The notes beneath the pieces are model-generated. The model had not been told where the DNA came from. It made no database searches and saw only the letters and a program-made list of their open reading frames with translations. Position numbers and translations under genes: made by a program. Positions 2,561 through 60,379 of a stretch of DNA of 64,000 nucleotides are shown piece by piece. Position 1 is the stretch's first letter. The number at the start of each line of letters is the position of its first letter. Source of the DNA: Candidatus Poribacteria bacterium (GTDB lineage Bacteria > Poribacteria > WGA-4E > PCPOR2b); assembly GCA_965208325.1 (NCBI GenBank), contig OZ242326.1:32001-96000 (forward strand), read 5' to 3'.

Positions 2561-5500
2561 TCAATTACGAATCTTCGATAACAACGCTTCAGCCTTATGT
2601 TTTGCGGTTTCCATCTTCGGGTAACGCAATTCTCGGTAGCCGCAAACGTCTTGAGGGACTTGGAGCGCACGAACGTGAGCATCGTAATCATTTGCATCTT
2701 TTGGGGCAAAGGTATCAACAACCTCAACGATATACCAATCTCGAAAAACTTTTTCCTTTGCATGCCACTGAGAAAGCCAACGTCTAAGGAACTTCATCCG
2801 TTTCATCAAATTCAGTTGCCAGTTCCGGGTGTTCATGTCCCACCTAATATCTTTGCCCATCACGGTGAAATGGGGGCGGTTAAGGTGAACATACTTAATC
2901 CTATCTCCATTTGACTCATCGACATTGTACTGCGCTTTGTCGCGTTTTAATTTATCCTTGCTAGTGAGCAGGTGAGCCACGTAAATTTCGTCTTTTATGA
3001 GCATCACCTTGTACAAGTTGTTGATTGCGGATTTGGTCGCTCGAAAACCCTCTGTACGACGATCCTTGGCATAGATATGCCGAATCTTTTCGGTGTAGCG
3101 GCGGGCGTAGTTCAGGTCTTCGAATTGAATCAGGTCGTATACCCGCAACGCCAAGCCGCGATTGGTCTTTTCATCTAATCCCATTGCTTCAACCGCTTCT
3201 TGAACCAATTTTTCATATTCACCTGCCAGGCCTTCGCCGCGCCATCTTTTCTCTAACATACCGCACTTCTGCCGAAGTAACGATTTATACCCTTGCCGCT
3301 TTGGCGCCACTGCAAAGGCATCTGCATCTATCGCAATCCGCCTTCCTATGTCAAACGCGCGTTGATTGGATGCCAAATCAGATGGTTTTGCCACCCATGT
3401 CAACGCTGATTGAATGTGGTCTAGTTCGAGTGGAAGTTGTCCACGCTGGAATGCCACGCCTAGCAGCATGATGTTTGCGTAAAGATTGTTTCCCAGTAAT
3501 CTCTCAGAAACCTCAAATAAGTTCGCCCCGAAATATGCATCAGTTTTGGTGTATGCCCGTATACTATTCTCCAAATCAGCGATTTCAAAACTATCCTTGC
3601 CGATGAGCGTGGTTACGGTATCCGTTTTCGCGGTGTTTACGATAGCGGCCGTTAAATCCGGCGCGGCGACTCGAAAAGGGGCCTTTGCATCAATTCCGCG
3701 TACAGCCTCTAAAATGTCCAATCCTAACAGGAGATCTGCCTTGCCGTACGGGATGATTGGAGAAAGCTGATTGTCGGTCTTTGAATAAGTCACATGCGCG
3801 TATACGCCGCCGTTGCGTATTGCCAAACCCTTTTTATCGCAGAACCGTACCTGATACCCTTGGGCGTATCCGGCGAGAACCAATATAGAGGAAATTGTAC
3901 CGATGCCCATACCGCCAACTCCCGCGGCGTAAACGCTCCACGTCCGATTGAAATCGCATAGTGACGGCAGCGGCATCGGTTCGACCGCCGTGGGCGCAAC
4001 GCCCATCGGCATCTTTTCTTCGTGCGTTCTCAAATCAAGGTCCGCGTCAACCAAGACTTTCGGTGGACGCTTGCGCGTCACGATAACCTCTTCAAATGAG
4101 GGACATGCCCACTTGATTCGAGCGCATGCTCCATCGGTCACACAGTTTGATGAATCAATGCCAATCTTTGGACCGTAATCAGTTTCATTGACCTTTAGAC
4201 CGGGACAACCTGTGGCTTTGGTACATTCCAGACAAAATTCGCAAACTTCCGGCGTGATATTGATGTGCTTCTCAACCTTCAAGAACCCTTTTTCTTTAAT
4301 TGTCTTGTGGTTTTCACGGCGCAAACGGCGATGATAAGTGATTCCGCACTCCTTATCCGCGATTACAATCTTAACGCCCGGATTGAGAATGGTGTCCTCA
4401 AGAAGCGCCTTGTATTTGACACGATCCTCAGGATCTGTTCGGACGATGAAGAGATTGGAACTCCCGCCTGCGAGTCCACGGGCTACCTTTTCGATGTCCT
4501 GAGCGAATGTCGGATTGCCGAGAATATCTTCCTCCCCCGCCGGCGTGGGTTGATGCCCTGTCATCGCGGTTGTCTGATTATCCAAGATAACATACGTAAT
4601 GTCTTGTCCATTCTTTATTGAATCGGAAATTGCCGACATCCCTCCGTGGAAAAAGGTGGAATCGCCCATAAAGACAATCTGCTTATTTTTAATGAACGAA
4701 TCAATTCCTGCTCCCGTACCGCCGCCCAACGCCATGGCTGATAGATTGTGCATGAGACGTGGAAAGGGTTCGTACTTTAGCATAGAATAGCAGCCGATGT
4801 CCCCATGAAAAACGAGATCTACAGGCGGCGAGGCGTGCTGTTTTTTCATGTAGTCGGCATCCATGAAGTGCTTGGTAATATCGAGAAAGACACTCGAAGA
4901 ATCGCGATGCGGACACCCCGGACAAAAAGTCGGCGTGCGCGCCGGAATTTGAACGTCATATGAATTGACTTGTTCAATTCGCTTTTCTTCACGCGAAAGC
5001 GCACCTTCAACCATGTGTATTTTCACGGGCGTACTTTCTTCCCGCCCTTGTAATCCCTTGGATGGTAAGGCGGAGTCTGTCCGCATCTTCCGCCGAAGCA
5101 GTGGAATCAACCGTTGAATCAGGATGGACGGATTGAGTCCTAGCGATTCGGGAATCCCGGGTAAATCGTTTGGGAATTGTTTGCCCCACACTTGTACATA
5201 CCTATCTATCTCGCCGCTTTGGTAGAGGCCGCCGACGATTGCTTTGATATCCTTCTCTAGAAGCGGCCGCTTCTCCTCGACGACGTAAATCTCGCGGACA
5301 CCCGCTGAAAATTGGCGCACAATCTCTGTATCAACCGGATGCGTCAAACCGAGCTTAAGGATTGGAATTTGACCTTGGATTTCCAGCTCATGCAGCGCAT
5401 GTTCGAGATATGTGTAAGCCACTCCCGACGTGATGAAACCCATCTCGTGCTGGGTTCCGTTTAGATTGTAAATCTGATTTAGATTGCGGCGGCGCGCAGT

Positions 5501-6208
5501 CTCAATCGCATTGGGAAATCGCCTTTCTAGAGTTTCAATCTCAATCCGGGCACTATCGGGCGGTAAAACTACCCGGTTATCTATATTGATATCATCTGTA
5601 TTGAGCGTCGTGGTGTCATTCGCGTTGATGTCGGGGTAGCGGTTCGGATGAAGCTGAACATTTCCCCCGCCATCCGCCTGGTTCACTGTGACTAAGTAGG
5701 CTGTGTATAGGTTTGAATTTACGGAGAGTTCAAAAGCAACACGCAGCCAATCTTTCACTTCCTGAAATGTGCTCGGTTCTACAACCGGTGTATAGAGATG
5801 GCGGGCAATAAAACGCGAATCCGCGGGTACTTGTGTACTGCTTGACGCCGGATCATCTCCGACGACGACAACAGCTCCACCCGTCGTTCCCGCTAAATTG
5901 CTAATAGCTAAGGCGTCAGACGCCACATGGAGTCCCACGCTCTTCATATAAGCGACAGCGCGGAGGTTCGCCATCTGTGATCCGTTAAGCCTCGCTACAC
6001 TGAGGGCTTCATTGTTTGCAATCTGCGCGACAATCCCGTGCTCCTTAAGTAGGTCGGCGTTCCGTCGAATGACTTCGAAAACATCGGCAAGCGGCGATCC
6101 GGGGTATCCTGTTAACAGGCTGACTCCGCTCTCTAACGCCCCTTTAATTAACAACTCACATCCTGTATAAACGTTCGAACCACTTTCCTGTATAAACCTT
6201 CTATCCAT
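2561..6208 (-). CDS. Indolepyruvate ferredoxin oxidoreductase family protein (fused alpha/beta single chain)
   Basis: GYPGSP, TPP-binding FCPGCPH / GDIGC / GDSTFFH / TAMTGHQ, ferredoxin-like CEFCLEC, and beta-subunit GVGGMGIGT and KKGLAIRNG motifs. Confidence 0.9.
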   Translation of the reverse strand: MDRRFIQESGSNVYTGCELLIKGALESGVSLLTGYPGSPLADVFEVIRRNADLLKEHGIVAQIANNEALSVARLNGSQMANLRAVAYMKSVGLHVASDALAISNLAGTTGGAVVVVGDDPASSSTQVPADSRFIARHLYTPVVEPSTFQEVKDWLRVAFELSVNSNLYTAYLVTVNQADGGGNVQLHPNRYPDINANDTTTLNTDDINIDNRVVLPPDSARIEIETLERRFPNAIETARRRNLNQIYNLNGTQHEMGFITSGVAYTYLEHALHELEIQGQIPILKLGLTHPVDTEIVRQFSAGVREIYVVEEKRPLLEKDIKAIVGGLYQSGEIDRYVQVWGKQFPNDLPGIPESLGLNPSILIQRLIPLLRRKMRTDSALPSKGLQGREESTPVKIHMVEGALSREEKRIEQVNSYDVQIPARTPTFCPGCPHRDSSSVFLDITKHFMDADYMKKQHASPPVDLVFHGDIGCYSMLKYEPFPRLMHNLSAMALGGGTGAGIDSFIKNKQIVFMGDSTFFHGGMSAISDSIKNGQDITYVILDNQTTAMTGHQPTPAGEEDILGNPTFAQDIEKVARGLAGGSSNLFIVRTDPEDRVKYKALLEDTILNPGVKIVIADKECGITYHRRLRRENHKTIKEKGFLKVEKHINITPEVCEFCLECTKATGCPGLKVNETDYGPKIGIDSSNCVTDGACARIKWACPSFEEVIVTRKRPPKVLVDADLDLRTHEEKMPMGVAPTAVEPMPLPSLCDFNRTWSVYAAGVGGMGIGTISSILVLAGYAQGYQVRFCDKKGLAIRNGGVYAHVTYSKTDNQLSPIIPYGKADLLLGLDILEAVRGIDAKAPFRVAAPDLTAAIVNTAKTDTVTTLIGKDSFEIADLENSIRAYTKTDAYFGANLFEVSERLLGNNLYANIMLLGVAFQRGQLPLELDHIQSALTWVAKPSDLASNQRAFDIGRRIAIDADAFAVAPKRQGYKSLLRQKCGMLEKRWRGEGLAGEYEKLVQEAVEAMGLDEKTNRGLALRVYDLIQFEDLNYARRYTEKIRHIYAKDRRTEGFRATKSAINNLYKVMLIKDEIYVAHLLTSKDKLKRDKAQYNVDESNGDRIKYVHLNRPHFTVMGKDIRWDMNTRNWQLNLMKRMKFLRRWLSQWHAKEKVFRDWYIVEVVDTFAPKDANDYDAHVRALQVPQDVCGYRELRYPKMETAKHKAEALLSKIRN

Positions 6209-47442: not shown

Positions 47443-47505
47443 CCATGAGTTAAACTGATAACAGATGTTATTTCCATCAATTACCATGAATCCATGGAGG
47501 TCATT

Positions 47506-48306
47506 ATGAAACCACAAAGTCATTCAAACTACGGTATCAATCGTCTGGAATCAAAGACGGCGAGAGCGGCAATTATTCAGAAGATTGCGTCAGACTTCAA
47601 TCTGATGCCTATCCTTGCCGAAGCCTACTATAATCAGATTTCTTCCTACTTTGCCCAACACGCCGATATTAAACTCACATCAGGCCAAATCTGCTATGAA
47701 GCCGTAGCCGCCGACGAACCCGCAGGTAAACACATTGCCTTAGCCAAAAAGGTCTCCTGCCAACTCACCCTCAATGATGTGCACACCGATCTTGAGGTGT
47801 TAGCCAACTATGGACTTGCAGGACTCAGACGACATCGAATCTTACGGTTAACCAAACAAGCCTATGACCAAGACGCTTTGCTCAGCTATGAAGATTTAGC
47901 GGTGCTATTAACCACCAGCCCGGCGACCGTCAAACGAGACATTCGACAGTTGAAACAGCAAGGGTTTTTTGTAATGACTCGCGGCGCCAAACACGACATG
48001 GGCCCCGGCATCTCTCATAAAACCCAAATCCTAGAACTGTACTTTAAAGGCTATCAATTCACCGACATTGAGCGAAAGACGAACCACACCGAACGCGCCG
48101 TGTTGAGATACTTGCGTAATTTCACTCAGGTAGCAACCCTCCATCATCAAGACTTTCCAAAGGAACAGATACGGCTCATCACCCATCTCTCTGACCGATT
48201 GATTCGTGAGTATCTCTCCCTGTATGATAAATACGAACATACAGAGCGAATGACGACTTTACTTCATCCTGAACCCGTTGATGAAAAAAAGGGGGAAAAC
48301 TCATGA
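47506..48306 (+). CDS. DUF1670-like protein (first paralog)
   Basis: RLTKQAYDQDALLSYEDLAVLL..SPATVKRD, TRGAKHDMGPGISHK and HTERAVLRY motifs; GGAGG RBS before ATG 47506. Confidence 0.8.
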   Translation: MKPQSHSNYGINRLESKTARAAIIQKIASDFNLMPILAEAYYNQISSYFAQHADIKLTSGQICYEAVAADEPAGKHIALAKKVSCQLTLNDVHTDLEVLANYGLAGLRRHRILRLTKQAYDQDALLSYEDLAVLLTTSPATVKRDIRQLKQQGFFVMTRGAKHDMGPGISHKTQILELYFKGYQFTDIERKTNHTERAVLRYLRNFTQVATLHHQDFPKEQIRLITHLSDRLIREYLSLYDKYEHTERMTTLLHPEPVDEKKGENS

Positions 48307-49196
48307 GTAAATCATTGACTCGAACCGAAATCAACGAGAAGAAAATCAGACGTATCAATGATAAATCGTTGCGGCAGTTGCTGATTCATCGCTTTATCAA
48401 TTCCTATGGGTATGACAAAGGCGAAGTGACTGCCAAAGCCATTGTCGATGACATCGTCAAAACTATTGAAGACTATTTCCTGATTCGCTTGCCACTTGAT
48501 AAACTCGCCGCTGGAGAACAACTTCCTGATGAACGAATGCTTAGCTATGGTCAACTGGTTTGGATGGCTGTGCCGATTGACGAATATCCACAGAGAGCCA
48601 AGTCAATCGTTAAAACCCGCATGAAGCCTGTGGTTTTAAGCTTTGTGGCCCCCGAGGACATTGAACACTATTACAGCGGCTTCAGCTCTCGTGAACTCAG
48701 AATTCATCGATTGGTGCGATGGTGTTATCAAGCCTATGACCAAGGGGCATTGTTGACTCAACTAGACCTGGCTGTGTTGCTCAACGTCCGCGACCCAGTA
48801 GTGAGTGAGTATGTCAACGAGTGGCAAAGCACCAGTGGAAAAATCTTGCCCACTCGCGGCAACATTCACGATTTATCGGCGGCAATTACACACAAGAAGG
48901 AGATTATTACCCTTTATCTACAAGGGCACCTGACTCCGACCATTGCTGCCAAAACCAAGCACTCCAAAGAAGCTGTTGACCGATACATCCATGATTATGA
49001 GTCCGTTAAGATTGTTCGCACCGCTACCGATGACATTGACAAAATCTCTCAGATTACCAAACTTTCCAAGCGCGTCATCTCTCAATATCTCGACCTAATT
49101 CCTCAACATTCGCTGAATGACATCAACGCAAACTTGGAAGACGGCAAAGATAACACCGTGCCGTCCAGTTCCAAACCTACAGGAGACTTGCAATGA
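48303..49196 (+). CDS. DUF1670-like protein (second paralog)
   Basis: RWCYQAYDQGALLTQLDLAVLL, PTRGNIHDLSAAITHK and HSKEAVDRY motifs; ATGA overlap with the first paralog. Confidence 0.8.
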   Translation: MSKSLTRTEINEKKIRRINDKSLRQLLIHRFINSYGYDKGEVTAKAIVDDIVKTIEDYFLIRLPLDKLAAGEQLPDERMLSYGQLVWMAVPIDEYPQRAKSIVKTRMKPVVLSFVAPEDIEHYYSGFSSRELRIHRLVRWCYQAYDQGALLTQLDLAVLLNVRDPVVSEYVNEWQSTSGKILPTRGNIHDLSAAITHKKEIITLYLQGHLTPTIAAKTKHSKEAVDRYIHDYESVKIVRTATDDIDKISQITKLSKRVISQYLDLIPQHSLNDINANLEDGKDNTVPSSSKPTGDLQ

Positions 49197-49441: not shown

Positions 49442-49545
49442 TTAATCGCAGCAAAACCTGTACTTTAGCCCCAGCGGGGCGGCAGGTATATAGAAAACAC
49501 AGTAACCCAATCCCCAAAGCCCCAGATGAGAATCAACCGACCGAA

Positions 49546-50460
49546 TAGAGAGGGATCAACTGAGCGGATAGCGAAGGCGATAGTCTTCTCAAGTTATTAT
49601 AGTTCTTGTAGGTTGGGTAGAGCGGATTCATCCAAAAACATCCATGAAAACGAACCGCCCTGTCAACCGCAACACGTACAAAATTCGAGGCTTGTAGCGA
49701 AACCCAACGCTTTTAAAACCTCACCCATCCCAATTGATTACCAAACACCAACACCGCTGCTAATCCCGGACAACCCTTTTTCCATGAACCTACCCCCAAT
49801 GGTTAAACAATCATGCTTGTCCAATAAGGTGTAAGTGCTAGGAAATCCGGCTACGCTTCATAACCGAATGATCATGTGCGCTCTTAATCATCGCCCATCA
49901 TTCAATCAAAAAAATCACAGTTCAGACAGTTCTTGTAGGTTGGGATTAATTCAGCGCCTAGATCAACCGACTGTATAAGGCGCGCAATAGCGTTTTTGCA
50001 ATCTCAATTCCCCTCCTTACCAAGGAGGGGATAGGGGAGGTTATAGGACGGATCAGCTCAGCGCACAAGGAGTGCAATAGTCTTGGTTCTTAAAGTTCGA
50101 ATCTCGCCGTGGAACCTACTCCCGAAAATCTCGAATCCACCCCCGTCGGAGCGATCTCCGAATCGCGAAACATACCCTCATAATCACAGTCCATTCATTT
50201 AATCATATAAATCACAGTTCAGACAGTTTTTGTAGGTTGGGTAGAGCGGATACACCGAAACATGCCCATTATAACGAACCGCTCTGTAAGCTGAATGTAT
50301 GCAAGATACGCTGGATGCAGCGAAACCCAACGCTTTTATAACCTCCGCCCCTCCAAAAACGTCGGGTTTCAGTGAAGACTATGAGTAAATTATCGCTCTC
50401 CCTGCTCGGTCGGTTGATCCGTCGCTATTCGCTCAGTTGTTCGTTCTACAAAACCTACAA
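49546..50460. repeat. Dense cluster of REP/MITE-like repeats
   Basis: ~115-bp imperfect direct repeats at 49607-49722 and 50231-50345 (TGTAGGTTGGGTAGAGCGGA...GCGAAACCCAAC); AAATCACAGTTCAGACAGTT at 49912 and 50209; CCCCTCCTT-ACC-AAGGAGGGG hairpin; CAACTGAGCG(G/A)ATAGCGA copies shared with 105-135. Confidence 0.8.
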
Positions 50461-50681: not shown

Positions 50682-53600
50682 ATGGCAAATAAAAAACCAC
50701 GAAAACGACGCAAAAAAGCAAACCTGCAAGCAAACCCCAAGCGGCAAGCATACGATCCGCTAAGGGGATACCGCTATCAAATATTGCACAGCGTACACGC
50801 TTGGTTGGGCCTTTCTGAAGATCAGGACCTCTATCTGGAATGTGCGGGAGATTTTGACACGATATCAGATGATGTTGCTACGGCAGTGCAGGTCAAAGAC
50901 ACGAAACACAACATCACGCTCAGATCTCAAGAAGTAACTGATGCAATCAACAACTATTGGAAATTGCGAGCGGACAACCCCGATAGGCGTGTGAAATTCC
51001 GTCTTCTCACACGATCCAAGATAGGCACGGAACGCGGAAACCCGTTTGGAGAGGGTAAATCGGGGCTTCACGTGTGGGGTCGCTGTGCAGACGATGAAGC
51101 AACTATCACGGAACTCTCTAAATTTCTGCAGTCAGATGAAAAAATTACAGATGACGTGAAGAACTTTCTAAAAAAATCAGATTCCAAAGAAATCTACGAA
51201 AAGCTCATTGAACCTATTTCTTGGGAAACGGGCAGCAAACCCGCTAGTTATGTTGAGCAATCTATACATGACAAACTAGTTCTTCACGGGAATCAACTCG
51301 GTTTCTTACCTTCTGAAGCCAAAAAAGTTGTTGATCCGCTAATCCAAGAAGCTTGGAAGGTAGCAACGCAAAAGGCAAACCGCGTTCTCACCAAAACCCG
51401 ATTCCTCGAAATTTTCGAGAAACAGACTACACAAATAGTCTCGACCCAGTATTTGCGGCATCTGCAAATGCAGGTCGCTACCATGAGTAATGTTGGCACT
51501 CCCTTTATAGGTGACCCAACTGATATATCAATTCAATCTCACTCTTCTATACTGAAAACAATACCGCCGCTCTATCCTGATGTAACTTCAAGAACCAGTT
51601 TGCTTGCAAGCATTCATGCTAAACTTCTTTCAGAGGGGATAGTTGTCATTCACGGCGGAGCAGGAAGAGGAAAGACAACACTCGCAAAATTAACCGCAAA
51701 GGAGACAAGCGAATCATGGTTTTGGCTGAATCTAACTAATAGAGAGCCGTCTCAAGTAGTCCACCATTTACAACAACTCACTATTGAAATCAGTAATCAA
51801 CCCACACCAGTCAACATCGCCCTTGACGATCTGAATTTACAACCCCAGCAGTTACGGAGGTATGAAGAAATCTTGGGAGTAGTGGTTTATAGAGTGTTTG
51901 AGCGTGGTGCAAAAGTGCTGATTTCAAGCCAACATGAACCCCACGACAATCTCACCCGCCAACTCGGTGTATCACGGTCAGTGGCTGTTGATGTGGGTGA
52001 CTTTTCGCTATCTGAAATTGAGCAATTTGCAAAACAGTTGGGGTGTCCTGCTGAAGACGCAAAAAAATGTGCACAGGTAGTCCTGTGGCATACAAGTGGA
52101 CATCCGAGACTTGTACACGCTCGACTCGCTCGACTACGGCAAGATAACTGGACTCGACCAGATATAATCGAAAGCATGGTGCAAACACCCGGAGAGGTAT
52201 TGGACGAACGGGAAGCCGCGCGACAATTGCTCGTAGAGTTGCCAGACGATCAACAGGAATTTCTCTATAGACTTAGCTTGTTGCCTATGCCTTTCCGGAG
52301 AGATTGCGCGCTCTACATCGGCGAGATAACAAAACCTATCCCTTTTTCAGGAAATATTTTCAGTCAACTAGTCGGTCCTTGGATAGATCAAATTCATAAA
52401 ACCTACTACACAATTTCACCTTTATTGACTAATGCGGCCAAGCAGATTTGGCCAGAAAAAAAGATAAACGACCTTCACGCTCAAATCGCAGAGGCAATCC
52501 TCGAATCGACAGATCTGACCAAAATAGAAGCACGGGCTGTGCTCTATCATAGTATGCTCGGACAGAACGAGCTAGGCTTTTTTGTTGTGATTCAGGCATT
52601 GATGACCGCTCCAGAGCACCATTGGAAAGAACTTAGCCATGAATTCTCGTGGTTGATACATCTTAAAACTGATTCTCGCGGAATGTTATTTCTTCAGAAT
52701 CCCGTTGTGAATAATCTCTTTCGCTCACTCCAACATCGTATTGCGGTTGAGGTCGAACCAGAGGCTGCACCAAAGATACTTGAAAATTGGGATAAGAAAG
52801 TTGTGCCATACGAGCCGGACCATTTGTATCACCTAGATCGCCTAATGCTGGCACAGCAGGCATTGACGTATGGCCAATCGTCACTTTCAGCCAAAAAGAT
52901 AGTAGGCTATCTCAAAGAGATTATCGAAATTACAAAAAAACATAAAGAATTCTTAGAATCAGATGATGATTCGACGGGAAAGCTTAAAGGATATAAAACC
53001 GATAAATCTAACTTTTTCAGCCTTCTAGTTGGCTTTATTTGTGCTCGTCGTCCAATTTACGCTCCGTTTCTCAGCAGCCTTATTGGCGAGTTGGATGAAC
53101 TTCAACCGGAAAGTCGGACTTTATTATTGGCTGATTTCGAGGATGATACCATTCACTCTCGAGTTCTCATGGATGGTATATGGGAATCGGAGGCGAACCG
53201 CGAAAATCCGGATTGGACAAGATGTTTTCAGGTATTAGACAAAGCAATTGAACGAACTATCGCTTGGGGTTATCCCCATCTCGCTGCTGCATCAGCAAGG
53301 TGTAAAGCCATGATCCATGATGAATGCTTACATGATGCCGATACGGCCCATAAAATTCTTCAGGATATAATATTAAAAGTGGGGCAATTTCCGGTGCTAG
53401 AAGAAGCAATAGCAGCCATATATTTGAATCAGGGACGCTATAAGGAAGCACTCAATATTTATGAGCGAATTCTTCCCGACTGGAATCCACCGTCGGGACA
53501 GTTGGATGTTATGCCTCCAGAAGGTTGTCGTCGCGCCGCAATTTGCGCCGCAAATTTGGGCGATTGGGGTAAAGCCGCCGCCTTTTTTGTAGATGGAGCT

Positions 53601-54959
53601 AATAGAACTCGTGAGAACACCGAAAGACATATCGGGTTTTATGCGGATGCGGGATATGCGCAATTCAAGGCCGGTTATTTCCTAGATAGCATAAGTCTAT
53701 TGAAACGGGCGTTGCAAACATTTGAGATACTTCAGCAAAACAATGGACATGACAGGTATTTTACTATAAAGCGACGTTTAGCGTACACTTTGAAATGGAT
53801 GACAGAGCAAGAGGGTGAATTTAGATCCTCAGAACTTGTAGAACCCCCGGTGGGTTTCTGCACCAATCCGGAGACAGATGAAGGTGTTTCATCTCTGCCT
53901 GATTTTTCAATCGCGTACGCTTGGCTTTATCTAGCGCAGATTGAATACAACTTTGGTCATGGAACAGAGGCTTTAGAGCACGCCGTGGACGTCATGGACG
54001 GTGATGAATGTCCCAACTTAGATTTCATTCGCGCTTTCGCGGAAACACAAAAAGATTTTAGAAACAAAACCTTTGATGAACTGCCACAACGAATAAATCA
54101 ACTAGTGATTGCGTGTGACTTAGTACAGAGTCATATCAAGAGTGCGAAGGGACTTGAAGAACAACGAGACAAAAATTTGCCTAGTGTAAATCCTCCCAAT
54201 TTCGCTTCTGTTGCGAACATCACCACTATGTTAGTAGCCGCACTGCTTGTTCAAATGTGGACTAACTCAGGTATGCATAGTGTTCTAGCAACATGGCGTA
54301 GAAATTCAGCGGAACTACCCATCCAAGAAAACATGTTCAGTGTTCTCGATCTGATTGAATCCATGTTATCCAGAGACCAAAAGCACGCGTTGGATGTAAT
54401 GAGAACGCAAGGAGCCAAATATGAAAAACGGCTTGTGGCAACATTAAAGATTCTCAATAGTAACAAAACGAGCCCGGAAATTCTCTTCCATGCACATGTG
54501 CTCATCACGACAGCTTTCATTGGTCAGCTGTATGAAGGATATGTCATCCAGGACTTAGCTGAATCTCTTTCTGCACAATGGCTAGAAAAAACTAGAGCGC
54601 CCGGAATTTTGCAAATGCCAAGGATTACGGTCCCTGAGATAGAACGTGCTTGCAAGGGGAGTGAGTCTGCGAAGAAAAAAATTGGCAAAATTCTCCTCGC
54701 CGCACAACAAGCTGTCTCAATAAGGGTGTCGACTGAAACCGTACAGCAGTTTCGTAATTGGGCAGAATCGGAATCAAGCGCGAAACAGGAACCGAAAACA
54801 GCAAAAAATCCGATAGCACAACGCCTAATCCGCGCGATGGAAAAACCGCCGCATCTCACCCATGAAGACGTTGAAACGCTGCGTCAATCAATCGAAGAAG
54901 GTAAAATTCCTGTAAAATTCGACTCGCCTTTTGAGCCGGATGAATCTGAAAAGCAATGA
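50682..54959 (+). CDS. Avs-like antiviral protein: N-terminal PD-(D/E)xK nuclease (Cap4-like), STAND NTPase and helical/TPR region
   Basis: LRGYRYQ..LYLECAGDF..AVQVK nuclease motif, GGAGRGKT Walker A, IALDDL Walker B, TSGHPRLV (GxP) and TPR-like helices (YKEALNIYERIL). Confidence 0.75.
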   Translation: MANKKPRKRRKKANLQANPKRQAYDPLRGYRYQILHSVHAWLGLSEDQDLYLECAGDFDTISDDVATAVQVKDTKHNITLRSQEVTDAINNYWKLRADNPDRRVKFRLLTRSKIGTERGNPFGEGKSGLHVWGRCADDEATITELSKFLQSDEKITDDVKNFLKKSDSKEIYEKLIEPISWETGSKPASYVEQSIHDKLVLHGNQLGFLPSEAKKVVDPLIQEAWKVATQKANRVLTKTRFLEIFEKQTTQIVSTQYLRHLQMQVATMSNVGTPFIGDPTDISIQSHSSILKTIPPLYPDVTSRTSLLASIHAKLLSEGIVVIHGGAGRGKTTLAKLTAKETSESWFWLNLTNREPSQVVHHLQQLTIEISNQPTPVNIALDDLNLQPQQLRRYEEILGVVVYRVFERGAKVLISSQHEPHDNLTRQLGVSRSVAVDVGDFSLSEIEQFAKQLGCPAEDAKKCAQVVLWHTSGHPRLVHARLARLRQDNWTRPDIIESMVQTPGEVLDEREAARQLLVELPDDQQEFLYRLSLLPMPFRRDCALYIGEITKPIPFSGNIFSQLVGPWIDQIHKTYYTISPLLTNAAKQIWPEKKINDLHAQIAEAILESTDLTKIEARAVLYHSMLGQNELGFFVVIQALMTAPEHHWKELSHEFSWLIHLKTDSRGMLFLQNPVVNNLFRSLQHRIAVEVEPEAAPKILENWDKKVVPYEPDHLYHLDRLMLAQQALTYGQSSLSAKKIVGYLKEIIEITKKHKEFLESDDDSTGKLKGYKTDKSNFFSLLVGFICARRPIYAPFLSSLIGELDELQPESRTLLLADFEDDTIHSRVLMDGIWESEANRENPDWTRCFQVLDKAIERTIAWGYPHLAAASARCKAMIHDECLHDADTAHKILQDIILKVGQFPVLEEAIAAIYLNQGRYKEALNIYERILPDWNPPSGQLDVMPPEGCRRAAICAANLGDWGKAAAFFVDGANRTRENTERHIGFYADAGYAQFKAGYFLDSISLLKRALQTFEILQQNNGHDRYFTIKRRLAYTLKWMTEQEGEFRSSELVEPPVGFCTNPETDEGVSSLPDFSIAYAWLYLAQIEYNFGHGTEALEHAVDVMDGDECPNLDFIRAFAETQKDFRNKTFDELPQRINQLVIACDLVQSHIKSAKGLEEQRDKNLPSVNPPNFASVANITTMLVAALLVQMWTNSGMHSVLATWRRNSAELPIQENMFSVLDLIESMLSRDQKHALDVMRTQGAKYEKRLVATLKILNSNKTSPEILFHAHVLITTAFIGQLYEGYVIQDLAESLSAQWLEKTRAPGILQMPRITVPEIERACKGSESAKKKIGKILLAAQQAVSIRVSTETVQQFRNWAESESSAKQEPKTAKNPIAQRLIRAMEKPPHLTHEDVETLRQSIEEGKIPVKFDSPFEPDESEKQ

Positions 54960-55372
54960 ATAAGTATCTTCTGCAGACATCTACGTGCAGCGCTTTGATG
55001 GAAGATTCCCCGGCAGTTATCAAGCGTTTGAATTCTCTAACCGAGGCGGACTATCTATTTACTTGCCCGATCGTAAAAGAAGAGATTTTATACGGAATTA
55101 TTCGCCTCCCTGCAGGAAAAAGACAACGAGATCTGCAACAAAAGGCAAATGAACTGTTTGCTCAAATTCCCTGTGAACCAATCCCAGATAATGTTGCCGA
55201 TTTCTATGCAAAGATAAAAGCTGCGGCTGAACGACAAGGAACGCCATTAGATGAATGTGACCTTTGGATTGCTGCGACAGCTCTTGCGCTTGACACAATT
55301 CTGGTTACTTCTGATTCCGACTATGGAAGAATAGCGGGGCTAGGATTGCGCCTGGAAAATTGGGTCATTTAA
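54956..55372 (+). CDS. PIN-domain (VapC-like) protein
   Basis: YLLQTST..., IVKEEILYG, DLWIAATA, LVTSDSDY and LENW motifs; ATGA overlap with the upstream gene. Confidence 0.88.
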   Translation: MNKYLLQTSTCSALMEDSPAVIKRLNSLTEADYLFTCPIVKEEILYGIIRLPAGKRQRDLQQKANELFAQIPCEPIPDNVADFYAKIKAAAERQGTPLDECDLWIAATALALDTILVTSDSDYGRIAGLGLRLENWVI

Positions 55373-55422
55373 CATACAGCTAACTGCTAACCAATAGCCA
55401 CTGCCCTCAAGGAGTTTTACCA

Positions 55423-57036
55423 ATGCCCACACTCGATTTCAAAGGAAAACAACACATCTACGCCCACCATCTCACTGTCCCCTACCAGCCGCTTGAACCA
55501 GACGAGTCTCGCTCTTGCAACCCGAACGGAACCGACGACAATCTAATCATCCACGGCGATAACCTAAAGGCGCTCAAAGCCCTGTTTCCCCGCTACGCGA
55601 ATCGAGTCAAGTGTATCTACATTGATCCGCCCTACAATACCGGCAATGAGGCCTGGGTATATAACGACAACGTAAACAGCCCGCTAATGCAGCAGTGGCT
55701 CGGGGAGATTACCCCTGTTGACAACGAAGACCTTGAACGGCATGAGAAATGGCTTTGTATGATTTGGCCACGGTTACACCTGCTCAAAGAGTTGCTTGCC
55801 GAAGATGGAGTAATTTTTGTCTCAATCGACGACAACGAGCAACACCATCTGCGAATGCTAATGGATGAAATTTTCGGGGAAAAGAATTTTGTTGCTAACA
55901 TCGTGTGGCACCACCGGAAATCCAGCCAGAATGATATAGACGTTTCTCTTTCCCATAACCACATACTTTGCTATGCGCTTGAAAGGTCTTCCTTTTCTTT
56001 CAACGCTGGCGACATTGATGAAAGCAAATTCTCCAATCCTGATAACGATCCTCGTGGTCCATGGGTAGCAGATCCAATGGACGCACCCAATATCAGGGAA
56101 AACTTGACATACGAAATCATCAATCCCAACACGGGTAAAGTTTATCTTCCTCCCGCTGGCAGATGTTGGAGATTTTCAAAAGAGAGATACGATGATGCAT
56201 TAAAAGAAAGTCGAATTTTGTTTGGACGGCGAGGGACTTCTAAACCCCAATATAAGCGTTTTCTCAGTGAAGCCCGCGAAAGGGGAGTCAACATCTTTAC
56301 AATATGGAGCGATGTAGGGACAGCTACCGATGGCACAAAGGAATTTAATCGTATTTTTGGACGCGAACAATCTTTTGCAACCCCAAAACCGACCGATTTA
56401 ATTGCAAAAATAATTAGGGTATCCACATCGAAAGATGACATTGTTCTCGACTCTTTTGCCGGCAGCGGGACAACCGCACACGCTGTTCTAGAATTGAACA
56501 AAGAAGATGGCGGTAACCGCAAATTCGTCCTCGTTGAATGCGAAGATTACTCCGACACCATCACTGCCGAGCGGGTACGCCGTGTCATCAACGGTGTTTC
56601 AAACGCCCGCAACGCATCACTACGTGAAGGATTAGGCGGCTCTTTCACCTACTGTACGTTGGGTGAACCGATGAATATGGAAGGGATGCTCACCGGTGAC
56701 GCGCTGCCTGCGTTTGAATCCCTCGCTGCTTATCTGCTGCACACCGCCTCTGGAGTTACATGTGGCGCCGGTCAGTTGACCCCGAAAAACGATGATGGCC
56801 TATTTCACACGGGAGACAGAACCGACTACTATATGCTCTACAAACCCGATTTAGAATTCCTGCGCAGTAATGAGTCAATGCTCACCCAAGATCGGGCGGA
56901 ACGCATACGGGACGCCAGTTGCCACAATGGTAAAAAGGCAACCGTTTATGCTCCGGGCAAATACATTAGCCAGAAAGATCTTACACCCATGGGAATTACA
57001 TTCTGCCAAATTCCGCATGCCTTGCACGAAAGATAA
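55423..57036 (+). CDS. mod: Type III restriction-modification DNA methyltransferase (Mod)
   Basis: IIHGDNL, IYIDPPYNTG, SIDDNE, TPKP and LDSFAGSGTT motifs. Confidence 0.92.
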   Translation: MPTLDFKGKQHIYAHHLTVPYQPLEPDESRSCNPNGTDDNLIIHGDNLKALKALFPRYANRVKCIYIDPPYNTGNEAWVYNDNVNSPLMQQWLGEITPVDNEDLERHEKWLCMIWPRLHLLKELLAEDGVIFVSIDDNEQHHLRMLMDEIFGEKNFVANIVWHHRKSSQNDIDVSLSHNHILCYALERSSFSFNAGDIDESKFSNPDNDPRGPWVADPMDAPNIRENLTYEIINPNTGKVYLPPAGRCWRFSKERYDDALKESRILFGRRGTSKPQYKRFLSEARERGVNIFTIWSDVGTATDGTKEFNRIFGREQSFATPKPTDLIAKIIRVSTSKDDIVLDSFAGSGTTAHAVLELNKEDGGNRKFVLVECEDYSDTITAERVRRVINGVSNARNASLREGLGGSFTYCTLGEPMNMEGMLTGDALPAFESLAAYLLHTASGVTCGAGQLTPKNDDGLFHTGDRTDYYMLYKPDLEFLRSNESMLTQDRAERIRDASCHNGKKATVYAPGKYISQKDLTPMGITFCQIPHALHER

Positions 57037-57048
57037 AGTGATGCTGCC

Positions 57049-59604
57049 ATGATGGAACTGAAGACGTATCAGACCCGCGCGCTTGACGCTTTTAGTCAAT
57101 GGTTAGATACGCTTAAAACAGCGCGGCATCAGTCGGAAACTGCGGTTAAATCATGGCCCGCAGCTGCCGGCGGTATTCCTGATGCGGTGAAAAATTATCC
57201 GCGGCTGGCGTGGGAGACGCTTAAAGAGAGCGGAGGGCTCGCGCATAGTGCGGCGCCGTATGTAGACCGCACCGACGAAGCAAACTCTCCAATTCCGCAC
57301 ATCTGCTTCAAAATCCCAACAGGCGGCGGCAAGACCCTCCTTGCGGCTTCTGCGCTTGAACGTCTCAATCGGCAAACCGGTTTGACATTGTGGGTTGTAC
57401 CGACCAAGGCAATCTACGCGCAGACAAAAACTGCACTGTGGAATCGGGAACACCCGTATCGTCAAACCCTAGAGCGCGCGAGTGCGGGCAGAGTCAAAAT
57501 GTTGGAAAAGGACGACGAGTTCAGCCGAGACGACATCGCAAACTACCTTTGTGTCATGCTGCTCATGTTGCCAGCAACCAACCGGCAACGAGGAAGAGAG
57601 TTTCTGCGCATGTTTCGGGATTCGGGGCGTTATCCCAGCTTCTTCCCCGAAATCGACGATGTGTTTAGAGATGCTCGCCTGCAAATCGATCATCCCGATC
57701 TGGACTGTCATACCGCACCAGGTCCCGTCAAGCATAGCCTTTTTAACGTGTTCAAGCTACTGCGTCCAGTCGTGGTTCTTGATGAGGCGCATAAAGCCTA
57801 CGGTTCTAAGACCAGGTCCGCCAACGAAGAGTTTGCCCGTTCAATCTCACGCCTAAATCCACGTCTCGTAATTGAACTCTCCGCAACGCCCAACCGTGGT
57901 ATCAGCAACTTGCTTGTTGACATTGACGGCCCCGATCTCAAGAAAGAGGAAATGATTAAGCTGCCGGTGCAGGTCACGTCATTTCCGAATGCGGAGTGGC
58001 AATTAACGTTGAGTCAGGCTGTCGAAGAGTTAGAACAATTAGATGCCGAAGCAAAATCGCTAGAGAGCAATACAGGGCGTTACATCCGACCAATCGCCGT
58101 TGTCCGCGTCGAAAACACAGGTGCGGCTCAGATTGGTGGAGATAATATCCATGCTGAAGATGTACGGCAAAATCTCGAACACAATTTACATGTGCCCTCG
58201 GAGGCAATTCGTGTGAAATCCGCTGAAAAGGATGAGCTTGGCAAGGAAGATTTGCTCTCCGAGATTTGCCCGGTGAAATGGATCATCACAAAATCGGCAT
58301 TGATGGAAGGTTGGGATTGTCCATTCGCATACCTACTGGTGATGCTGGACAACACGCAGGCACAAAGGGCGATTACGCAGCTCGTCGGTAGAGTCATGCG
58401 GCAACCGCACGCGCAACTCACCGGACGGGTATCACTCGATCAGTGTTACGTCTATTGCCATAACGCAGCCGTTGGCGAGGTCGTCCAACAGGTCAAAAAT
58501 GGTCTGGAAGCAGAGGGCCTCACTGGCTTGGGCGATGAAGTGCTAAGCACGGCAGGTGAGGGGCAACCGGACGCCATTCGGAAAACCGTTGAACGGCGAA
58601 CGCAGTATAGAGGTAAAGACATCTTTCTGCCGCTGGTGTTGCATTTAAATGGCGCGGATTGGATTCAACTGGATTATCAGCGTCATATTCTGCCGCACAT
58701 TGACTGGGTGGCAATCGCAGCGCCAGATCCTCGCAAATCTGCACCCGCCGTTGCAAGTCGCCAAGACGCAACGGTCGACCTTGACGATTTGCCGCCAATG
58801 TATCACGCCGACCAAGACCTTCACATTGACAAAACGGTTCGTGTATCCGACTTCGCACGCCATCTTTCCGACATTGTACCGAATCCGTGGCACGCCGCAC
58901 GTATAGCACAAGGTCTAATTGACCGCCTCAAACAGGCAGGCGAGTCGAAGGATAATATCTATGATCGCCGCGCCTATCTTACACAAGTGCTGCGAGAGCA
59001 TGTAAGGGATGAAGTGGAAGCGCAGGCGGAGCGTGTTTTTCAGGAGAAGTTGAACGGTGGAGAAATTCGGTTTGATTTAGAGACTGAAGAACCGAATTAC
59101 AGAATGGTAGGAAATTATGAAATTTTTGTTGCGGACAATGATACACTTCTTACTAGAAAGAGCTATGAACCATTACAGTTAAGTCTGTTTGAACCAGTTT
59201 TCGTAAGCCAATTCAATGAGTTGGAAATGAGTTTTGCTCGTTATCTGGACGAGCAGAAGGCGTTGAAATGGTGGCATCGTGTCGCTGCACGTCAAAAGGG
59301 GGAATACTACCTGCAAGGCTGGAAACAAGGGCGCATTTACCCGGACTTTGTAGCACTTGCAAGTCGCGGCGATGATGAGAAACGGGTACTAATTTTCGAT
59401 ACAAAAGGCGAACACCTCAGCGGAAACCGGGATTCGGAATACAAGAAAAAAGTGCTGGAAACACTCGAAGGCGCGTTCAATGCCGTGGGAAAGGTAAAAG
59501 TGCGTGAGGGCACTACAATTACGGGAGTTTTTGAGTTGGTATTTGAAAAACACGCCGACACCGATTTCGCAGAGCTAACCCCGCGGCTGTCTGGAGAACT
59601 TTAG
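57049..59604 (+). CDS. res: Type III restriction enzyme Res subunit (SF2 helicase plus PD-(D/E)xK nuclease)
   Basis: PTGGGKT, DEAH, SATP, EGWDCP, QLVGRVMRQP and C-terminal YPDF...DTKG motifs. Confidence 0.9.
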   Translation: MMELKTYQTRALDAFSQWLDTLKTARHQSETAVKSWPAAAGGIPDAVKNYPRLAWETLKESGGLAHSAAPYVDRTDEANSPIPHICFKIPTGGGKTLLAASALERLNRQTGLTLWVVPTKAIYAQTKTALWNREHPYRQTLERASAGRVKMLEKDDEFSRDDIANYLCVMLLMLPATNRQRGREFLRMFRDSGRYPSFFPEIDDVFRDARLQIDHPDLDCHTAPGPVKHSLFNVFKLLRPVVVLDEAHKAYGSKTRSANEEFARSISRLNPRLVIELSATPNRGISNLLVDIDGPDLKKEEMIKLPVQVTSFPNAEWQLTLSQAVEELEQLDAEAKSLESNTGRYIRPIAVVRVENTGAAQIGGDNIHAEDVRQNLEHNLHVPSEAIRVKSAEKDELGKEDLLSEICPVKWIITKSALMEGWDCPFAYLLVMLDNTQAQRAITQLVGRVMRQPHAQLTGRVSLDQCYVYCHNAAVGEVVQQVKNGLEAEGLTGLGDEVLSTAGEGQPDAIRKTVERRTQYRGKDIFLPLVLHLNGADWIQLDYQRHILPHIDWVAIAAPDPRKSAPAVASRQDATVDLDDLPPMYHADQDLHIDKTVRVSDFARHLSDIVPNPWHAARIAQGLIDRLKQAGESKDNIYDRRAYLTQVLREHVRDEVEAQAERVFQEKLNGGEIRFDLETEEPNYRMVGNYEIFVADNDTLLTRKSYEPLQLSLFEPVFVSQFNELEMSFARYLDEQKALKWWHRVAARQKGEYYLQGWKQGRIYPDFVALASRGDDEKRVLIFDTKGEHLSGNRDSEYKKKVLETLEGAFNAVGKVKVREGTTITGVFELVFEKHADTDFAELTPRLSGEL

Positions 59605-60379
59605 TCATTCTTCATTTTGCCGGTCGCGAATCGTTGACCCCGTGTTTGTAAAGCCCATTTACTGTAACTGCGCTGACCTTATGATAACTTCCACTGTTGG
59701 CGCCTACCGGGCTAATACACAAATCTATAGTCATGGGCGAAACCAATTACTTCATTACGAAGCTAGGTCACGAGTACATTTCTAAGCACAAATCAAAGCA
59801 AAAACCTCTGCGCGAGAATGACACATCTGAGTAGCAATTCTTGGGGTGAAATGTACTGCCCGAACCAAACATACCACCCATTTAGCGATAGCGCCCTGCC
59901 ATATCCTACACTACCGATTTCCGATTCTATAAACCGTGCCAACACGGAGACATGCCCGGAAACGATAGTGAGCAAAATAGCATTTTCATAGACATTTTCG
60001 CGCGTTTGCCTTTTTCGGTCTAAGAACATTGCGTTGGAATTCGCAATGCACTCCTACCTACCATCCACCCCTCCTGTTTCCATGACTTCTGGCGGCTAAT
60101 CCAAATCCTCAATTTACCCGCAAACCAAATTAATCAAAGCTCCGCCAAAATCAAAATTGTATTCGTTAAATGTCAGGTCCTGCCGAGGCGACAAAGATGA
60201 AGCATCTGAAGTACCCGGAACAATTTAACATGTTAAATCTGTTAAATTTTGTAAACTTTTGTAAACTTTTTCAAGGAATTCACTGTCCTCGAAAATCGAA
60301 CGGCGGAACCGCTAAGAGATCCCATACATGTTAAGAGCAGGGCAGTGACCCCACCGCCAAAAAAAATTTGCATTTTTCT

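Follow-up and report, generated by a model that had tools for sequence, protein, structure and literature searches.

The C-terminal tail of an Avs3-like STAND protein from Candidatus Poribacteria is a probable antitoxin segment for the adjoining PIN toxin

In a 64,000-nucleotide stretch of DNA from a Candidatus Poribacteria bacterium (contig OZ242326.1, positions 32,001 to 96,000; hereafter the window), a gene encoding a protein of 1425 amino acids (aa) with a P-loop NTPase, probably of STAND type, runs directly into a gene for a PIN-domain ribonuclease of the VapC toxin family. The end of the STAND protein is a tail that very probably neutralises the PIN and truly belongs to the STAND polypeptide. 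Since this C-terminal segment would be the type II antitoxin segment of the PIN toxin, the STAND protein itself would be the antitoxin of the PIN. The broader reading that we favour, though tentatively and at a little under an even chance, is that of an Avs3-like STAND protein joined to a type II antitoxin segment for the downstream PIN, in which sensing would be coupled to release of the PIN.

The last residues of the 1425-aa open reading frame (ORF) read ...QQFRNWAESESSAKQEPKTAKNPIAQRLIRAMEKPPHLTHEDVETLRQSIEEGKIPVKFDSPFEPDESEKQ. A preliminary description, made from the sequence alone, had pointed to a linker and a tail of ~50 aa at the end of the STAND protein, to an ATGA in which its stop overlaps the PIN start, and to the lack of a separate antitoxin ORF, and each of these points was borne out. 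The tail measures ~55 aa; the stop codon TGA of the STAND gene (54957–54959) and the ATG of the PIN gene (54956–54958) form an overlap of 4 nucleotides (nt); and on the + strand no ORF of at least 40 aa lies between or beside the two genes, except for frames nested within both. No GGAG-type ribosome site was found before the PIN ATG, and AAGGAG stands 8 nt ahead of the ATG of the next gene (55423). Because of the overlap and the lack of a GGAG-type site of its own, translation of the PIN probably depends on ribosomes that complete the long ORF.

This frame was compared with short-read contigs. Contigs from runs X1 and X2, built independently, cover 54300–55276 with 0 differing letters and 0 gaps; as both runs come from a single sample, from which the assembly may itself have been made, they do not count as independent support. 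In run X4, which stems from another sample, contigs span 54685–54869 and 54978–55467 with 0 differences, and runs X5–X22 contain only small shares of the stretch. Thus, the contigs of X1, X2 and X4 hold no stop or frameshift of the sort that the preliminary description had proposed to look for in reads, and nothing of this kind cuts off the tail in the population sampled. A contig from run X5, derived from a related strain (36 differences in 636 bases, depth 2), is missing a single base of the linker (54782), a loss that would split the genes, and the closest STAND relative, P0124, ends ...FRNWAES; both would suit a mistaken assembly, or a read-through that arose very recently and in the window genome only. 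This explanation is refuted by the contigs without differences (that of X4 in two parts) and by the presence of the in-frame fusion in 24 species records (24 of 80 loci) and in 91 of 121 STAND proteins, and an error is also more likely to break than to make a 1425-codon frame; we leave it practically no chance. Of the two origins offered at the outset, a fusion or a chance read-through, the first held in the form of an antitoxin-type, PIN-binding module truly in the STAND polypeptide, on the strength of the homologues, the predicted complex described below and the clean contigs, and a read-through peculiar to this genome did not.

The extent of the fusion was assessed from both of its halves. 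Homologues of the STAND protein (P0001) at E ≤ 1e-5 numbered 416, nearly all of 1340–1770 aa, and the close relatives were all from metagenome-assembled genomes of Candidatus Poribacteria, which are sponge symbionts. In a set of 121 consisting of the window protein and the best 120 of these 416, blastp identified a full tail in 91, a partial tail in 2 and none in 28. With the last 64 aa as query, 152 proteins of 35–112 aa were retrieved at E ≤ 0.01 and at up to 88% identity, together with a further 145 homologues of at least 113 aa; the likeness to small proteins upstream of VapC toxins, noted in the preliminary description, thus holds, and stand-alone as well as differently fused homologues adjoin PIN genes. 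Scans of the tail against Pfam and NCBIfam returned no family, the best scores being OPA1_C at 0.02 and, for a longer piece, BrnA_antitoxin at 0.018, both far under the cut-offs. The ESM Atlas returned no named family for the tail, and its nearest named clusters, DUF2281 and AF2212-like, both at 0.79, are a lead only. The ~55-aa tail is very probably an unannotated PIN-antitoxin module, and its set of fusion partners is unusually wide.

Selection on the tail was measured by the Nei–Gojobori method over a 42-codon core, with 74 of the 80 tail cores scored and 6 loci unscored. The ratio of nonsynonymous to synonymous substitution (dN/dS) was 0.13 in STAND-fused, PIN-linked copies and 0.12–0.17 in all other classes. 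Tail identity between loci was 61–94%, compared to 44–58% in the STAND segment immediately before it. The N-terminal half of the tail (KNPIAQRLI), which belongs to the predicted PIN interface, is conserved in the fused forms, and at the position where stand-alone tails start, the fused forms have no ATG, GTG or TTG, so that this conserved half is made only within the long protein.

The downstream gene product P0002 matched Pfam PIN at 57.4 bits against a cut-off of 23.6, and NCBIfam VapC(Leptospira) at 1.1e-17, under the cut-off; the profile of its family aligned over the full length with the tRNA(fMet)-specific VapC structures 6ifc and 3tnd (E 6e-35). Residues E43, D102 and D120/D122 are conserved, and the four-acid feature is complete in the family and incomplete in the window copy, which has Q at position 7; in VapC structures, this position is that of the first catalytic acid. 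A search seeded with the PIN found 27 loci, 25 of them in Poribacteria, and in 24 of these 25, L007 being the exception, the tail immediately precedes the PIN, its end coinciding with the PIN start; at the 2 remaining loci, from Gammaproteobacteria and with 30% PIN identity, an unrelated ORF lies upstream. Within the genome to which the window belongs, PIN and tail each occur twice, and both copies of the PIN are paired with a tail (2 of 2). The second pair (G000:C1:446739-447322; L029, L111), with a tail 54% and a PIN 59% identical to those of the window, stands alone in a frame of 114 codons, and neither a STAND nor a restriction-modification (R-M) gene is near it.

From the side of the tail, counts were made over the best 80 of 110 relatives, and a PIN follows the tail at 40 of these 80 loci and is missing from the other 40. 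A PIN that is almost never without the tail, together with a tail that is often without the PIN, is the pattern of a toxin–antitoxin pair. Consistent with this, distant PINs (58–62% identity) accompany distant tails (47–53%). Every one of the 40 PIN-linked tails belongs to an open frame of at least 102 codons and so has an N-terminal partner domain, whereas the 8 tails whose frames do not exceed 81 codons are without a PIN. Some N-terminal domain seems to be required for a working antitoxin, and here it is supplied by the STAND protein.

Binding of the tail to the PIN was addressed by complex prediction, with a tail piece of 55 aa (54792–54956) and with alignments of 26 rows for the PIN and 21 rows for the tail. 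The interface score ipSAE was 0.79 (0.79, 0.80 and 0.79 in the single runs) compared to 0.00 for the best of 3 controls, on a scale where 116 of 157 solved complexes and 2 of 215 mismatched pairs attain the mark, a calibration that is rough here since custom alignments were used; VapBC complexes having been solved already, the score may also partly mirror likeness to them. Agreement of contacts was 96% or more, with a per-residue confidence (pLDDT) of at least 72 for the partner. In the model, residues 3–38 of the tail contact PIN residues 8–9, 12–17, 43–51 and 99–101, beside positions 7, 43 and 102, and the predicted position of the tail is over the catalytic face of the PIN.

Predicted binding, together with translational coupling of the STAND and PIN genes, would also be expected of a docking adaptor, a tail that recruits the PIN with no inhibition, so that oligomerisation of the STAND would activate the RNase by proximity in the manner of effectors fused to NLR-like proteins; the same C-terminal position does bear a covalent effector in P0147 and P0171, where STAND, tail and TIR form one chain. 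However, an interface predicted over the catalytic face is the antitoxin mode of inhibition, and the near-constant company of the tail (24 of 25 PINs), with tails so often PIN-free, fits neutralisation and not recruitment. Tail–PIN pairs with tiny N-domains and no sensor exist as well, and the TIR family needs no tail. We regard the adaptor as quite unlikely.

A separate small antitoxin could instead arise from an internal in-frame start in the STAND ORF, a gene within a gene, as with RpnS in rpnL, a precedent reported for the Rpn proteins (PMC10327210). The tail contains a Met (AMEKPP) that could start a 40-aa peptide and is conserved at 90% or more (M60) in alignment A1, which covers the branch of the window. 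This Met, however, is V or I in the distant tail–PIN loci L017–L025, it is equally conserved in stand-alone forms that begin further upstream, and no GGAG-type site precedes it; there is no conserved start codon where the stand-alone forms begin, and a peptide starting at the Met would miss the conserved tail residues 3–13, which are part of the predicted interface. Such an internal gene is, in our judgement, very unlikely.

The STAND protein itself resembles the antiviral STAND protein Avs3, with a Cap4-like nuclease, a P-loop NTPase and a helical TPR-like region, as judged from sequence motifs and models (Table 1). The nuclease region, approximately the first 260 aa, matched the PADLOC model LmuA at 2.2e-10 and Pfam Cap4_nuclease at 4.6e-5 (24.1 bits, under the 26.2 cut-off). 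An AlphaFold2 (AF2) model of aa 1–290 (pLDDT 73) gave 24 Foldseek matches in the PDB at E ≤ 1e-3, the best being HerA-DUF4297 (9c1m), LmuA (9nxx) and Cap4 (6vm5); the nuclease domain of Avs3 (8dgc_A) was outside those 24, at E 4.8e-3 and TMq 0.46, so that the Cap4, LmuA and DUF4297 folds fit better. Residues E53, D57 and Q70-V-K72 of the nuclease motif are invariant in 25 aligned sequences. In the NTPase region, GGAGRGKTT (aa 325–333; 51654–51680) and IALDDLN (51816–51836) are the Walker A and a Walker B-like motif, and the Pfam matches to nSTAND3 (1.6e-3), nSTAND6 and AAA_22 are weak, each under its cut-off; the homologue P0147 reached NACHT at 1.2e-5 (25.6 bits, under the 26.7 cut-off). Further along, Pfam TPR matches near aa 909–931 are weak, and the AF2 model of aa 1101–1425 is all-helical and confident to ~aa 1362. 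Among PADLOC models, no Avs model matched P0001 at E ≤ 0.01, the only matches being to the LmuA and DUF4297 models, and phmmer with the whole protein against PDB sequences returned only a DUF4297 chain at E 0.13. Because the architecture is Avs3-like and no PADLOC Avs model matched, we describe the protein as working like Avs and do not class it as Avs.

Table 1. Features of the STAND–PIN locus and of the R-M genes behind it, in window positions
Feature	Position	Strand	Basis
STAND ORF P0001, 1425 aa	50682..54959	+	ORF call; C-terminus ...FRNWAESESSAKQEPKTAKNPIAQRLIRAMEKPPHLTHEDVETLRQSIEEGKIPVKFDSPFEPDESEKQ
N-terminal Cap4/LmuA/DUF4297-like PD-(D/E)xK nuclease, aa 1-262	50682..51467	+	PADLOC LmuA, Foldseek, alignment
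P-loop NTPase region, probably of STAND type, aa 295-700	51564..52781	+	Walker A, weak Pfam matches
Helical TPR-like C-terminal region (presumed sensor), aa 701-1362, ends ...QQFRNWAE	52782..54767	+	Weak TPR matches, AF2
Variable polar linker, aa 1363-1374 (SESSAKQEPKTA)	54768..54803	+	pLDDT <50; sequence differs among homologues
Antitoxin-like tail, aa 1375-1425 (KNPIAQRLI...FDSPFEPDESEKQ)	54804..54956	+	Homologues, dN/dS, predicted PIN binding
PIN/VapC-family toxin gene P0002, 138 aa	54956..55372	+	Pfam PIN 2.8e-15
Type III R-M methyltransferase Mod	55423..57036	+	Pfam N6_N4_Mtase 2.3e-37; PADLOC MTase_III 1.8e-173
Type III R-M restriction subunit Res	57049..59604	+	Pfam ResIII 1.2e-13; PADLOC REase_III 3.1e-188

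Table 2. Settings of the tail at the 80 tail loci, with open frames read through the STAND region and the tail
Setting	Loci	Gene behind the tail
One open frame of at least 1400 aa through STAND and tail (24 different species records)	24	PIN 22, none 2
STAND interrupted, tail in frame with the C-terminal piece	10	PIN 8, none 2
STAND complete, tail in a separate frame	5	PIN 0; TIR gene 2
No STAND, small DUF4926-tail protein	24	PIN 5, none 19
No STAND, HicB-like-tail protein	2	PIN 2
No STAND, other short frames	15	PIN 3; TIR gene 2

Under the reading we favour, the last ~55 residues of the STAND protein, following a flexible linker of ~12 residues, would act as the toxin-neutralising segment for a VapC-family PIN RNase, and the STAND would take the place of the small DNA-binding or dimerising N-domain of an ordinary VapB. 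The PIN would be made by re-initiation at the ATGA, so that every PIN would be synthesised beside a fresh tail, and the disordered tail would fold on the catalytic face of the PIN and park it on the STAND. In the AF2 model of aa 1101–1425, linker and tail have a pLDDT of 38–53 with two short helices, and such predicted disorder on the STAND alone is as expected for an antitoxin segment that folds on binding. If the STAND senses a phage protein and oligomerises, or if a phage degrades or blocks it, the PIN would escape and serve as a second, RNA-directed effector arm that cuts a tRNA, probably initiator tRNA by likeness to the family, and translation would halt while the Cap4-like nuclease attacks DNA. 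Situated in or beside a type III R-M operon, the cassette could provide a back-up layer of defence.

The gene neighbourhood was compared across the 80 tail loci. Mod or Res genes (at least 300 aa aligned) occur within 6 kb at 38 of them, and the gene order varies: in the window, STAND, tail and PIN are followed by Mod and Res, with gaps of 50 nt from the PIN to the next gene and 12 nt between Mod and Res, and at L038 and L042 the order is Mod-STAND-tail-PIN-Res. At these two loci, and also at L010, L012 and L054, the cassette is embedded between type III Mod and Res instead of lying beside them; at L041 the tail alone is so placed. A gene for a TIR protein of the CAP12/Pycsar type (PF10137; ~300 aa, E ~1e-40) takes the place of the PIN at L033, L037 (6166-7104), L039 and L040, and in P0147 (1735 aa) and P0171 (1766 aa) STAND, tail and TIR are a single chain (PF10137, 9.8e-42). 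The tail as a partner of this TIR was considered and ruled out by a TIR-seeded search, in which 12 of 16 loci, from other phyla, have no tail and the tail adjoins only at two places already known (L112, which is L037, and L114, which is L039). Since the TIR family is common without the tail, the TIR gene represents a swap of cassette and not a partner of the tail.

At three loci (L055, L062 and L077), the STAND protein, besides its C-terminal tail and the PIN behind it, has a DUF4926 at the N-terminus, and immediately upstream of the STAND gene is an intact DUF6883-like gene (L055:1265-1603, L062:1295-1639, L077:1295-1639). In a preprint (bioRxiv 10.64898/2026.08.28.747851), DUF6883 is proposed as a BECR RNase toxin and DUF4926 as its immunity partner. 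By sequence, the STAND proteins of these loci would have an antitoxin-type module at each end, the role of DUF4926 being putative. This suggests an extension of the reading above, a "toxin rack", in which an NLR-like STAND would hold separate RNase toxins by means of antitoxin or immunity modules grafted on its ends: the C-terminal tail would hold the PIN in all fused forms, the N-terminal DUF4926 would hold DUF6883 (BECR-Tox3) at the three loci, and phage sensing, or attack on the sensor, would free the toxins together with activation of the Cap4-like DNase. The exchanges of PIN for TIR, and the STAND-tail-TIR chains P0147 and P0171, would then be further states of one slot. We consider the extension unlikely; if true, it would mean that ordinary toxin–antitoxin pairs are plugged, in modular fashion, into innate-immune sensors as exchangeable effector arms.

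A number of observations weigh against a coupling of sensing to PIN release, besides the possible echo of solved VapBC complexes in the ipSAE. The first group concerns the effectors: the STAND protein has a nuclease effector of its own; codon 7 of the window PIN (54974–54976, CAG) encodes Q, whereas all 54 homologues carry an acidic residue there, D in 31 and E in 23; and codon 56 of the nuclease (50847–50849, in the motif LYLE-x-AEDFD) encodes G where 24 of 25 sequences have E. Judged from Q7 and G56, either effector may be weakened in the window genome. The second group concerns the connection between tail and sensor. The tail is not docked on the STAND in the AF2 model, and with the flexible linker and undocked tail of the model it is hard to see how oligomerisation would dislodge the PIN. 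Orphan tails, with no PIN, are equally constrained (dN/dS 0.14), so that the value of the tail is not limited to an adjoining PIN gene.

The third group concerns the history of the fusion. On a FastTree tree of the 121 STAND proteins, from which most tail columns had been removed, the state of the tail changes 17 times, at least 15 of these changes being forced by well-supported branches, and P0124, the closest relative of the window STAND at 78% identity, is tail-less; the deletion in the X5 contig would similarly end the STAND frame in the linker and split off the tail. Intact STAND genes without a PIN occur at L036, L057 and in the 5 split forms, and tail–PIN pairs without a STAND gene exist. 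The tail at L036 has an early stop, and this locus is not in alignment A4. Upstream, the tail is also fused to unrelated partners, among them DUF4926 (2.9e-22), a 589-aa TPR protein, an AAA_21 ATPase frame, an AF2212-like domain (precomputed PF01954), and weak DUF2281-like and weak HicB/UPF0150-like domains; fusion to any upstream neighbour may be a general property of the tail module. The TPR-repeat fusion lies beside a PIN (L023:4235-6001), as does the frame in which an AAA_21/AAA_15 ABC-type ATPase runs into a DUF2281-like-tail segment (L024:4481-6001), with two extra tail copies further upstream (3986-4153 and 4301-4417). STAND-less tail loci at L096, L097, L104, L105 and L073 (~5200-5700) are situated in dense arrays of tiny antitoxin-like genes, including AF2212-like MKSKKIKATYRNG..., HicB-like and DUF6883/DUF4926 genes, which look like a toxin–antitoxin hot spot.

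Much of this can be accommodated by a locked-in fusion that carries no signal from sensor to toxin, in our view a real possibility, albeit one short of probable. A tail–PIN pair would have entered a cassette hot spot between STAND and R-M genes, and loss of a stop codon would have fused the antitoxin to its upstream neighbour; with an active PIN, any mutation that halts translation of the tail would then be lethal, and the STAND, as a carrier only, would at most gain stabilisation of the defence island and a penalty on loss of the long ORF. The many unrelated upstream partners of the tail, mostly antitoxin-like small domains, are in keeping with this, as are the repeated changes of fusion state with a tail-less nearest relative, and the undocked tail of the model. 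Fission is seen only where the PIN is gone, as such a ratchet predicts: a PIN follows 22 of 24 fused forms and 0 of 5 split forms (Fisher p = 1.8e-4, for loci that are not fully independent). The 10 interrupted STAND loci keep the tail in frame, with the PIN retained at 8 of them, and P0248 (130 aa) and P0257 (132 aa) join the first ~72 residues of the STAND nuclease straight to the tail through an internal deletion of ~1300 codons that keeps the tail in frame, suggesting that decay of the STAND is tolerated if the tail is still made. In addition, the PF10137 TIR gene marks the slot behind the tail as a swap site. On the other side are the predominance of the fused state (91 of 121) with intact 1400-aa frames in 24 species records, the maintenance of the cassette as a unit inside R-M operons (L038, L042), and the second immunity-type domain, DUF4926, at the other end of the STAND beside its own toxin gene. 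None of these points excludes the ratchet, and the same counts are explained by it and by the reading we favour.

Around the locus, GC content is 0.44–0.47 across 47–57 kb compared to 0.50–0.55 in the flanks. Upstream of the STAND gene lie two adjoining DUF1670 genes in 47494–49196 (7.6e-64 and 1.1e-59, the first with an HTH) and a 102-aa ORF (49526–49834) with no family match; PADLOC returned no match for the DUF1670 genes, this ORF or the PIN. A tblastn search of the window for remnants of DUF6883, DUF4926, HicB-like or TIR genes found none (best E 0.2). Scans for promoters and terminators gave counts not above those in shuffled sequence (15 vs 16.8 and 7 vs 12.8), and a terminator-like hairpin 3' of Res (59622–59639) belongs to a kind of site no commoner than in shuffles.

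The wiring of toxin–antitoxin pairs into phage defence is poorly understood, and for most pairs the factor that removes the antitoxin is not known. The probable antitoxin segment of a VapC-type RNase, physically within an Avs-like pattern-recognition protein in 24 species records, would be a concrete form of such wiring, in which binding of a trigger, oligomerisation or destruction of the sensor may free the toxin. If the PIN is freed in this way, NLR-like sensors could acquire exchangeable effector arms by a simple route, the loss of a stop codon beside a toxin–antitoxin pair; otherwise, the locus would be a clean natural case of a toxin-enforced ratchet that freezes gene fusions and polices a 4.3-kb defence gene.

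Compared to known systems, the locus shares with VapBC modules of the tRNA(fMet)-specific VapC clade (Shigella and Salmonella VapC/MvpT, Leptospira VapC) a PIN toxin of ~135 aa whose family profile matches the solved structures 6ifc and 3tnd, an antitoxin coding sequence directly upstream with a 4-nt overlap, and an antitoxin segment that is predicted to be disordered alone and to wrap the catalytic face. It differs in that it has no separate vapB gene, that scans with Pfam and NCBIfam found no AbrB, RHH, Phd/YefM or HTH domain in P0001 or the tail, that the neutralising segment lies outside the antitoxin families of Pfam and NCBIfam, and that the window PIN carries Q in place of the first catalytic acid. 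Classic transcriptional autoregulation is improbable for a neutralising segment that a 1425-aa STAND NTPase carries at its C-terminus. With Avs3 (SeAvs3, PDB 8dgc), the protein shares, as judged from motifs and models, the order of Cap4-like nuclease, probable STAND NTPase and presumed helical repeat sensor; it is smaller (1425 vs 2028 aa), has no PADLOC Avs match, and adds the C-terminal antitoxin tail and the coupled PIN gene.

In PrrC–EcoprrI, a tRNA-directed nuclease lies in or beside an R-M operon and is a possible second line if restriction is blocked. PrrC, however, is kept latent by the R-M enzyme, whereas in the window it is the STAND that carries the neutralising peptide, and R-M genes accompany just 38 of the 80 tail loci within 6 kb. 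By analogy, the window locus may also be likened to PARIS (AriA–AriB) and HEC-03, where a large sensor NTPase reportedly keeps hold of, or pairs with, a small nuclease toxin as the effector of abortive infection. HEC-03B is described as a VapC-like PIN beside an ABC ATPase, embedded in a defence operon, and the principle of embedding toxins in defence operons is set out in the same source (bioRxiv 10.1101/2024.01.29.577857). The window differs from both systems in that its sensor is a STAND NTPase and not an ABC ATPase, and what links it to the toxin can be recognised as an antitoxin peptide; the AAA_21 ATPase-tail frame beside a PIN at L024 is a possible bridge between the ABC-ATPase and STAND kinds.

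Searches of the openly accessible literature on STAND, NLR or Avs proteins with an antitoxin segment, on DUF4926 and on Poribacteria defence revealed no description of the arrangement. The nearest described cases are HEC-03, fused toxin–antitoxin proteins such as CapRel, and the intragenic RpnS. CapRel(SJ46) (PMC9712102) resembles the window locus in the covalent union of an antitoxin element with a sensing function, by which a single polypeptide neutralises a toxin and could also report infection. In CapRel, toxin and antitoxin reportedly form one chain in which the antitoxin domain is the sensor. In the window, by contrast, toxin and antitoxin are on separate proteins, and the antitoxin looks like a passive tail borne by a large protein presumably dedicated to sensing.

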